A DNA stretch of 40,438 nucleotides, from assembly GCA_964585325.1 (NCBI GenBank), contig CAZPCT010000005.1, positions 1 to 40,438 of the forward strand, read 5' to 3'. Below the pieces are notes generated by a model, which saw only the letters and a program-made list of their open reading frames with translations, was not told the DNA's origin and searched no databases. Positions 7,589 through 9,856 of the stretch are shown here, piece after piece. Position 1 is the stretch's first letter, and each line of letters opens with the position of its first letter. The DNA comes from an uncultured Candidatus Saccharibacteria bacterium. Lineage in GTDB: Bacteria > Patescibacteriota > Minisyncoccia > JACQLN01 > CAZPCT01. Position numbers and translations under genes: made by a program.

Positions 7589-9856
7589 ATGAATATTTCC
7601 TCCCGCACAATTAGGACGATGTCTCTTGCTCTTTTGACTGTGGTGGTAGTAGGTATTTTTGCCGTCCCTCAGCTTGCGGTGGCTCAGTCTGGTAGCTTTG
7701 GTGGCTCGGATATAGACGGTGATGGGATAACTGACAGCCGTGATAACTGCCCTTTTCAGAGCAATGGGCTTCAACAAGACAGTGACGAAGACGGGATAGG
7801 GGACGTATGTGACGAAGACCAAGGAGGCGATCCGGATGGGTCCACATTACTTACAGTTGACCGTGCTGCCGATGCAGTAAAAAACCTCCCGGCTCAGGTG
7901 ACGAACCTTGTTGCAGGCGCTTTGGCAAACGGCCCCATCGCAGATGCGGTTTTCAATGGCCTTGCGGCAATGATCTCGCTTCTTACTGCGTTTTTTGGCG
8001 TGTGGATTTTTGTGGGAGCCGTGCTACTCAACTGGGCGTTCTCGCTAGGGAGTCTCACTGGTTCCACGTTTGTGTTAACCGGGTGGTCTATTGCACGGGA
8101 CCTGGTAAATATGCTCTTTATTCTTATTTTGCTCCTTATTGCGTTTGCCACTATTCTCCGCTACCAAACGTATGGTATTAGGAACGTTCTTCCCCGCCTT
8201 ATTATTGTGGCGCTTCTTATAAACTTCTCTCTTTTGGGTGCGGGTATCATTATAGACATCGGGACCACACTTGGGCAGTACTTCACTACCGGCGGGGACC
8301 CAGCCATTGATGTGGGAATCAACATGATGGGTGCATTAGGAATTCAGCGAACATTCATACCGGAATGGTTTAAAGGAGAAAATGTTCCCGAATTTTTCCA
8401 AGGAGGGAAGGGGGGGTCCTTTCACGGGTGGGAGCTTTTTGCCTACGCGCTTTCTAATCTCTTCTTCGTTCTCATAACCACGTTCATCTTTCTTGCTATA
8501 GCCATTATTATGGTGGTGCGGGTGGTCTACCTTTGGATCCTTTTGGTATTTATGCCGTTCGCGCTTGCCGCGTGGATAGTGCCGGATCTGCGAAATTACT
8601 GGAAAAAGTGGTGGAGTCAGTTTGTGCAGTGGGCGTTTATCCCTGCGGCGCTCGGCTTTTTCATATATTTTGCGCTCTTGGTTGCGACCGGCTTTAATGA
8701 GTTCTTTCTAGCCAACGAACTTCGGTCTACCCCCAGTGCTGAGTTGGATCGTATTACTAACTTCTTTGGCTACGCCCCTCAGGTCCTCCTGCAATTTATG
8801 GCCGTTATTATCATTCTGCTTATGGGTCTCACACAATCAAAGAAAGCGGTGTTCGGCAGTGTAAAGTTCCTAGAAACGGCATCAAATGCAGCCACAAAAG
8901 CAGCAAAAGGATATGCTGGGAAGAAGGGGCGGCAAGCATGGGAGACGGGTGCCGACCGAGCCGTACACGATAAAGAAGGAAACAAGCGGGATTGGGCCGT
9001 TAAGCTTTCTAATGTTGCGGGCGCGCGTCACTTACTGCGTCCTGTGGTGGGGGCCGCAGAATCACATAGGGCAAATATTAAAAAACGTTCAAAGGAGCTG
9101 GGAAAGATGAGTCTCAGTTCTCGCTCTCTTTTGTATAAAACACAGGACGCTGAAGGAAAGGCGGCCACAGTTCATAGTTTTGGAGGTAAAGTTCCTACAT
9201 ATACCGAGGCTGATGATGAGGCTGGAAAAATTCCGACTGGAAAGAAGATTGGAGACTTTAACACTGAAAAGGTTCCAGGCATGACGGAGAAGGACTTTGA
9301 AGAACAGTTGGGCGCGCTCAAGGAGATTAACCTGGCAGATGACCTGCTTGAAGCTGCTCCTCAGTTTGCCAAACTTGTGGGGAAGAAGACGGCAGATGAG
9401 ATTGGTAAGGTTTTGGGCAAGATGGACATCAAGAAAGCGGGGGGCATTATCTCTTCCGCCTTCTACAATCCCGATGTCCAAGATCAGCTTTTTCGGCAGT
9501 TCCAGTCCACTGGTTCTTTAGACAAAGCGCACATGGCCGCTATGATGTCTAAAAACCCCAAGGCCATGCTTCACTTCTTAGAAACCAAGGGCCTTGTTTA
9601 TAAAAATACAGCAGATAATTTTGTACCGGCGGAGGAAGAAGTCTTTAACAACGAGCACATAAAGGCCTCTATCACCGAGTATGTGCACAGTTATATGGGA
9701 AAGAAGGTTCCTGGTGCGGGCTCTGGAGCCACGCGCACAGACGGCACTACATATGTTGGTGTTGAGCCTGAAGAAGGCGATGGAGACCGAGAGCCGCCCG
9801 AAGCGCCGGAGAAGTATGGTGAGCCTGTAGACGCCGAAGAAAGTGGGGACGAATAA
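7589..9856 (+). CDS. Operon ORF3: polytopic VirB6/TrbL-like channel protein with N-terminal thrombospondin type-3 Ca-binding repeats and a ~325-aa hydrophilic C-terminal tail
   Basis: Signal peptide ending AVAQ. [37 protein letters not shown] matches the TSP3 consensus DxDxDGxxDxxDNCPxxxNxxQxDxDxDGxGDxCD. About 7-8 hydrophobic helices between aa 110 and 430. The VirB6 assignment rests on topology and gene context only. Confidence 0.6.
   Translation: [755 protein letters not shown]

Follow-up and report, generated by a model that had tools for sequence, protein, structure and literature searches.

Patescibacteria carry a chromosomal, origin-proximal type IV secretion system (T4SS) of the MPF-FATA-like kind, described previously by Quinonero-Coronel et al. 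(2025, PMC12102498), and according to Wang et al. (2023, PMC10633639) the T4SS is essential for the epibiotic growth of Southlakia epibionticum, the only species in culture that is genetically tractable. Here we analyse a contig of 40,438 nucleotides from an uncultured Candidatus Saccharibacteria bacterium (CAZPCT010000005.1, assembly GCA_964585325.1), which will be called the window, and in particular the protein P0001 encoded at positions 7589 to 9856. Family-level evidence identifies P0001 as the VirB6/TrbL subunit, of the "extended" type, of such a Patescibacteria T4SS. Unlike the other Patescibacteria members of VirB6, it has a thrombospondin (TSP) type-3 calcium unit placed after the signal peptide.

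The other described proteins to which P0001 can be compared resemble it in part. TrwI, the VirB6 of R388 (PDB 7o3v, 8rt9, 8rtd), shares with it the hydrophobic helical core, both by profile and by fold; unlike the target, TrwI has 342 aa, no cleavable signal peptide with ectodomain insert and no tail of ~330 aa, and it belongs to a diderm and works with VirB5, which is absent at the target locus. A core followed by a large C-proximal hydrophilic region is also found in extended VirB6 proteins, such as the Rickettsiales paralogues and the 700-900-aa MPF-FA homologs (PMC12857230). The MPF-FA extensions have been described as unstructured (PMC12857230), whereas that of the target is conserved, confidently folded and all-alpha. 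With the bacterial TSP3 modules (PF02412 and PF18884, in OmpA-family and Myxococcus MtsC-type proteins) the unit of P0001 has in common the DxDxDGxxDxxD loops and a predicted extracytoplasmic, membrane-proximal position. Unlike those of the OmpA-family and MtsC-type proteins, it is a single two-loop unit on a secretion channel subunit, and not an adhesin array or a porin linker.

Family-level assignment of P0001 to VirB6/TrbL

The features of the protein, all on the + strand, are as follows.
7589..9856, +: VirB6/TrbL-family subunit of the Patescibacteria T4SS, 755 aa, P0001 (from the open reading frame (ORF) and family-level matches)
7589..7684, +: Sec-type signal peptide, residues 1-32, with R6 and R9 in the n-region, a hydrophobic core and a predicted cleavage site AVA↓QS (hydropathy, sequence)
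7685..7930, +: lineage-specific insertion of ~80 residues, residues 33-114, made up of the TSP3 unit and a helical linker (ortholog alignments)
7709..7840, +: TSP type-3 unit, residues 41-84, with two DxDxDG loops and Cys54/Cys73 (PF02412, regular expression)
7931..8854, +: VirB6 hydrophobic core, seven helices, residues ~115-422 (hydropathy, AlphaFold2 (AF2))
8855..9697, +: conserved all-alpha C-terminal domain, residues ~423-703, family-wide (hidden Markov model (HMM), AF2 model of the tail)
9698..9853, +: disordered acidic C-terminal end, residues 704-755, not conserved (predicted local distance difference test (pLDDT) <50; the end of P0123 differs)

Hydropathy and the AF2 model agree on seven hydrophobic helices, from residue ~117 to residue ~418, and the pLDDT is mostly >90 over this core, in which W166, N174, N212, R311, P323 and W341 are near-invariant. 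A first-pass annotation of this DNA, made by a model from the letters alone, had counted 7-8 transmembrane (TM) helices. Orthologs of the target were found in 37 of 41 related genomes. Equivalent N-terminal signal peptides occur in orthologs. Pfam TrbL (PF04610) is matched by 15/54 aligned homologs (E <= 1e-3). When the family profile was compared with PDB sequences, it matched TrwI/VirB6 of R388 (7o3v_F, E 3.8e-4) over the hydrophobic core; the matches besides TrwI were weak coiled-coil and F-BAR noise only. The same proteins were returned by a Foldseek search of the PDB with the AF2 model, where the top five matches are TrwI/VirB6 chains (probability 0.95-1.0, target TM-score 0.34-0.48), with weak E-values (0.05-0.26). 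These matches, together with the T4SS neighbours described below, bear out the first-pass description of a VirB6-like channel protein. An unrelated transporter family, which that annotation had named as the competing identity, was rejected, considering that no such match was obtained and that MATE and SLC structures reached a Foldseek probability of at most 0.12.

The public gene call begins at Met11 (nt 7619; 745 aa) and not at Met1 (nt 7589), whose ATG lies 4 nt past the stop codon of the preceding gene (gene B). Translation probably begins at Met1, since this start adds the positively charged n-region (R6, R9) that a signal peptide should have.

The TSP type-3 unit is a lineage-specific insertion

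Residues 41-75 fit the pattern D.D.DG..D..DNCP...N..Q.D.D.DG.GD.CD exactly, at 19/19 fixed positions, as compared to a chance expectation of ~1e-21 for a proteome of 200,000 aa. Pfam TSP_3 (PF02412) matches with an E-value of 3.3e-8 and 33.5 bits (cut-off 25) over the stretches 41-59 and ~63-81, and the NCBIfam models MtsC and Omp28 match residues 40-77. In a genome-wide scan the unit scored 29.4 bits, and PF02412 was found nowhere else in the 572-kb genome. The segment corresponds to one complete type-3 unit, with an N-type and a C-type calcium loop spaced by 23 residues and a single Cys pair, and not to a long repeat array. With its two DxDxDG loops and one predicted disulfide, the unit is expected to bind roughly 2-4 Ca2+. 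The first-pass annotation had thus read the near-perfect TSP3 pair at residues 41-84 (nt 7709-7840) correctly and with the right coordinates; its wording "eukaryote-style" does not suit the repeat, considering that PF02412 is abundant in bacterial surface proteins, including those of other Patescibacteria. The G+C content of the insert is 0.53, and 0.45 at third codon positions (GC3); GC3 and Asp codon use resemble those of the rest of the gene.

Because the TSP3 unit comes directly after a Sec-type signal peptide, it very probably lies outside the cytoplasm. The N-terminal segment as a whole contains 17 acidic vs. 3 basic residues and one Cys pair, and from these sequence features, together with the PKD or Cys-rich domains that homologs hold in this slot, it is predicted with high probability to be extracytoplasmic, as the first-pass annotation had placed it.

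Alignments of the orthologs show that the unit belongs to an insertion. In P0122, an ortholog from the same family, the signal peptide leads almost straight into the first helix, so that its residue 35 aligns to target residue 115. Two further relatives, P0132 (a fragment, 63% identical) and P0123 (42% identical), have short and different Cys-pair segments in the place of the insert. No ortholog in the 37 relatives aligns upstream of target residue ~104, the TSP3 motif is present in 0/112 recognisable VirB6 family members, and a search of 5.8 billion proteins with residues 30-200 as query gave no other protein joining TSP_3 to the VirB6 helices. A scan of metagenome contigs for closer relatives returned 29-35% identity only, the lineage being sparsely sampled. 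The TSP3 unit is therefore a lineage-specific insertion, found only in this genome. The first-pass annotation had proposed a survey of orthologs for conservation of the repeat; the repeat is absent from every one of them, even from the 63%-identical P0132.

In the family, the segment that separates the signal peptide from the first helix ranges from 37 to 343 aa and is filled with PKD domains, with Cys-rich segments or with nothing; this N-terminal slot is a hotspot for ectodomain acquisition. A PKD domain occupies it in the VirB6 homologs P0044 and P0048, and in several other homologs the N-terminal region measures 150-340 aa and is rich in Cys.

TSP3-bearing surface proteins of relatives were also observed away from T4SS genes, at L026 1371-2105 (-), L027 768-2126 (+) and L025 2308-4071 (-). 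Those of genomes G021 (L026) and G017 (L025) end in a C-terminal membrane anchor. These three proteins show that the repeat is in circulation among surface proteins of the class.

The C-terminal tail is a conserved domain of the family

From residue ~419-423 (nt ~8843-8855) to residue 755 the protein continues as a hydrophilic tail of ~330 aa with an acidic end, in agreement with the first-pass annotation. A tail is present in 53/53 aligned homologs, with lengths between 157 and 840 aa, and P0123, the closest full-length relative, is 40% identical over 295 tail residues. An iterated HMM seeded with residues 441-703 recognised 75/92 family tails and 0/92 shuffled tails. When modelled alone by AF2, a check that the first-pass annotation had suggested, the tail is all-alpha and confidently folded, with pLDDT >90 over residues ~487-532 and ~567-667; its composition is helical, with 30% charged residues. 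Foldseek against the PDB gave no significant match for the tail (a generic alpha-solenoid at probability <= 0.2), there is no Pfam match at E <= 0.1, and no P-loop or NTPase motif was found in it. The tail is a conserved all-alpha domain of ~280 aa that belongs to the whole Patescibacteria VirB6 family and is not peculiar to the target. In the searched passages of PMC12102498 and PMC10633639, no description of this C-terminal alpha domain or of the variable N-terminal slot was found.

A two-loop calcium module on gene A in related genomes

Two genes precede that of P0001 in the operon.
5132..5881, +: gene A, membrane-anchored, first of the operon, without TSP3_bac loops (hhalign, HMM)
5878..7584, +: gene B, exported Pro-rich protein of 568 aa between gene A and VirB6 (jackhmmer)

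The linkage of TSP3 modules to the operon was counted in whole-genome scans of the 41 relatives. Outside the order of the target genome, TSP3_bac (PF18884) lies 2-5.5 kb upstream of VirB6 and on the same strand in 12/28 same-class genomes. In all 12 it is carried by the gene that opens the operon, which encodes a protein of 284-351 aa, in which an N-terminal membrane anchor is followed by two calcium loops. The loops are exactly two, 22 residues apart, with the pattern DxDxDGLxDWEE...DTDGDGxxDGEE. Gene A of the window is homologous to these loop-bearing proteins (hhalign 96.5%, E 9.6e-10, in addition to an HMM match), and a homolog search with the gene A alignment gave 5 matches, too few to quantify. 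Within the order, TSP3_bac was found in 0/13 genomes, and PF02412 occurs among these 13 only in the target genome, where it is on VirB6. It seems, then, that this order lost the gene A loops and that VirB6 re-acquired an analogous module here. Gene A proteins of the sister families (for example P0330 and those of genomes G013-G040) resemble P0001 in having, in the same operon, a two-loop calcium module on the outer face, no more than some tens of residues from a membrane anchor.

Gene A (helical, membrane-anchored) and gene B (exported, 315-1357 aa) form a conserved pair before VirB6 across the class (L028, L030-L041). A jackhmmer search with gene B matched a syntenic ORF in 13 related loci, and neither gene A nor gene B has a Pfam family.

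The T4SS operon and its genome

Further components of the secretion system are encoded downstream of P0001.
10687..10968, +: PrgI/VirB3-like protein, 93 aa (Pfam PrgI, E 1.2e-12, 48.7 bits, cut-off 27)
10965..11636, +: TrsD/TraC-like protein, 223 aa (NCBIfam TrsD and a match to the VirB4 N-terminal region)
11643..13409, +: VirB4 ATPase, CD1110 family (NCBIfam NF045971, 375.9 bits, cut-off 325)
15139..15867, +: T4SS pilin, VirB2-like (Pfam PF18895, 27.8 bits, cut-off 26.6)

The order of the operon is gene A, gene B, VirB6, a 266-aa protein, PrgI/VirB3, TrsD, VirB4, further genes and the pilin, and the synteny around VirB6 is kept in the loci of the relatives. VirB4 additionally matches Pfam P-loop_TraG and CagE_TrbE_VirB. 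The operon is flanked by ksgA and by jag-yidC-dnaA, and the chromosomal core genes of the window comprise pcrA, ksgA, jag, yidC, dnaA, dnaN, PBP1, murE, femAB and pilB; the genome itself amounts to 572 kb in 45 contigs and is 98% complete. The locus thus shows the CD1110-type VirB4, TrsD, PrgI, the VirB2-like pilin, the nearby dnaA and ksgA and the small genome that mark the MPF-FATA-like T4SS of Patescibacteria. The published Patescibacteria T4SS (PMC12102498, PMC10633639) agrees with it in the same components, with a VirB4 of the MPF-FATA-like clade, in the polytopic core of VirB6, in the proximity of ksgA, dnaA and dnaN, and in a cluster without relaxase or coupling protein, neither of which is encoded in the operon of the window. 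The host operon is a chromosomal, replication-origin-proximal T4SS typical of Patescibacteria, and the system is not new.

A separate TraC-like/TrsD gene (214-230 aa) before VirB4 (571-614 aa) was observed also in the unrelated loci L028, L029 and L030. For this reason, the apparent "split VirB4" of the window (10965-11636 and 11643-13409) is a normal arrangement. The 266-aa protein at 9877-10677, directly 3' of VirB6, has a conserved position, is apparently cytoplasmic and is low in complexity and rich in K, E, Q and G in its C-terminal half; it has no Pfam family and no BLASTP similarity to the VirB6 tail.

Elsewhere in the genome, on contig C38, an ATPase similar to VirD4 and to type IV coupling proteins (T4CP) is encoded (L016:934-2565, - strand, 544 aa), with the Walker A motif GKTGVGKT at residues 37-44. 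It matches TrwB_AAD_bind with 57.6 bits and T4SS-DNA_transf with 45.5 bits, and it is the only such ATPase of the genome. Its C-terminus is rich in K, Q and E, and its gene adjoins an mnmA-type tRNA methyltransferase gene (Pfam tRNA_Me_trans), far from the T4SS operon. The first-pass annotation had proposed that the tail of P0001 replaces missing coupling or docking proteins. At the level of the genome the premise of a missing coupling protein fails, because the ATPase on C38 exists, and the proposal finds no support in the tail, in which neither an NTPase motif nor a known fold was detected. Since the ATPase has no N-terminal TM helices, it would need a docking site at the membrane, which the tail could provide; it is therefore possible that the tail serves as docking site for this soluble VirD4-like ATPase.

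Proposed role of the insert and alternative explanations

We consider it rather probable that P0001 is the VirB6 of a known T4SS, with a family-wide tail and a unique TSP3 insert that acts like the gene A module. According to this proposal, Sec export and cleavage at AVA↓QS would leave the TSP3 unit at the outside of the cytoplasmic membrane, where a helical linker of ~35 residues would join it to the first VirB6 helix. By analogy with R388 TrwI, a VirB6 pentamer would sit atop the VirB3/VirB4 ATPase, which would place a ring of five calcium knobs around the base of the machine. The unit would then most likely work as a calcium-rigidified docking or spacer element for an extracytoplasmic sub-assembly of gene A, gene B and VirB6, and the C-terminal domain as a cytoplasmic protein-interaction platform under the channel, with no substitution of the coupling ATPase. 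That the unit is functionally equivalent to the gene A module is proposed tentatively, by analogy, and is held to be slightly less likely than not. A bolder version, which we regard as doubtful, holds that the two-loop TSP3 module is a so far unrecognised working part of the T4SS outer face, usually carried on gene A and here displaced to the N-terminus of VirB6. In this version the ectodomain of gene A would share its place with the N-terminus of VirB6, and the module would dock gene B, a candidate host-contact arm, in a calcium-dependent way.

A number of observations weigh against the proposal as a whole. P0001 itself has no direct match to Pfam TrbL (PF04610), even at E <= 10, which is why its membership in VirB6/TrbL rests on family-level evidence; of the two HMM searches suggested by the first-pass annotation, that for TSP_3 succeeded (33.5 bits, as reported above) and that for TrbL failed for the target. 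A precomputed TrbL_3 assignment of P0001 was not reproducible and was not used. Over the TSP3 region, modelled without ions and with no homologs in the alignment, the pLDDT of AF2 is <50 and gives no structural support for the fold. The two calcium modules also differ: that of gene A is a Cys-less TSP3_bac (PF18884) with 22-residue spacing and an N-terminal tether, and that of VirB6 a Cys-containing PF02412 unit with 23-residue spacing and a C-terminal tether. These different subtypes indicate that an analogous module was acquired independently and that the same DNA was not relocated. Moreover, 12 genomes of the same order lack the gene A module and have no TSP3 unit on VirB6 either, so that the module is dispensable and its presence on VirB6 is possibly coincidental. 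The remaining points concern the side of the membrane on which the tail lies. Loops L2-3 and L5-6 are both positive and nevertheless three helices apart, a pattern that does not fit seven simple spans. Of the hydrophobic helices predicted for R388 VirB6, just two truly span the membrane in the solved structure (PMC9259494). Three arrangements of the helices are plausible, and in one of them the tail is outside.

The tail is probably cytoplasmic, judging from the charge and Cys distribution of the family. In 54 homologs, the 33 residues past the last helix contain 4.6 K/R vs. 0.7 D/E, and Cys residues amount to 0.03 per 100 aa in the tails vs. 1.4 in the exported N-terminal regions. These two features support the first-pass placement of the tail inside, for which helix counting is not decisive: it cannot decide the side of the tail, because the solved VirB6 departs from the predicted spans and the charge pattern is inconsistent. 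The contrary explanation, that the C-terminal domain is exported and forms part of an extracellular stalk, appears unlikely. Most predicted helices of R388 VirB6 do sit outside the membrane, in the base of the stalk (PMC9259494), and if TM1 is no true span and TM4 and TM5 both span or neither spans, parity puts the tail outside. In addition, the large L3-4 loop is acidic and bears Cys-rich inserts (>=4 Cys) in P0010, P0018 and P0019; these inserts suggest an extracytoplasmic loop, comparable to P2 of Agrobacterium VirB6, in conflict with the naive seven-span topology. However, all the charge data can be accommodated by three spans following the large loop, an arrangement that keeps the tail inside, where the strong and family-wide positive charge right after the last helix, the near absence of Cys and a composition typical of cytoplasmic proteins would also place it. 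In A. tumefaciens the C-terminus of VirB6 lies in the cytoplasm, which counts against an exported domain as well.

As regards the insert, the main rival is a neutral and recent accretion in a tolerant VirB6 slot, with no role in the T4SS and a coincidental likeness to gene A; it owes this position to the 12 genomes of the order that manage without such a module. The great variability of the slot, the occurrence of TSP3 on unrelated surface proteins of the class and the limitation of the fusion to one genome would all fit it. We nevertheless find it somewhat unlikely, considering that every consensus position is intact, including each calcium-ligand Asp and both Cys, that GC3 and Asp codons match the rest of the gene and so do not mark a fresh foreign patch, and that gene A of the T4SS is the main TSP3_bac carrier in the class (12 genomes), which makes a T4SS-linked role likelier than chance. 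The model of the first-pass annotation, in which the TSP3 unit possibly senses contact or adhesion and the missing coupling or docking proteins may be replaced by the tail, is improbable. An operon without coupling protein or relaxase, and a sole VirD4-like ATPase that needs docking at the membrane, speak for it. Against it stand the ATPase itself, with its two domain matches, and a tail that lacks P-loop, family match and fold match and that is found family-wide, also in genomes in which T4CP homologs are common (PMC12102498). A unit of 44 residues tethered within ~40 residues of the membrane, below the cell wall, is poorly placed for cell contact, and for this reason a sensor is unlikely; a docking or spacer element, with its analog on gene A of sister lineages, fits better. 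Finally, the insert could have arisen from a chimeric join during assembly, as the genome is metagenome-assembled, in 45 contigs, and the fusion is present in a single record. This is extremely improbable, since the insert keeps the reading frame, with the signal peptide before it and the VirB6 core after it both intact, its G+C and GC3 are similar to those of the rest of the gene, and there are no repeats or contig ends nearby.

Significance for the T4SS of Patescibacteria

The general picture of VirB6 is unchanged by this protein. If the displacement of the calcium module from gene A to VirB6 were true, it would represent a Rosetta-stone-like event, in which the ectodomain of gene A and the N-terminus of VirB6 would take the same position of the machine. 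The insert and the gene A module hint at which products of the operon lie side by side at the outside of the membrane, and they make the role of calcium in T4SS assembly a testable question. The conserved triad of gene A, gene B and VirB6, as well as the folded C-terminal domain present across the family, are concrete targets for study.

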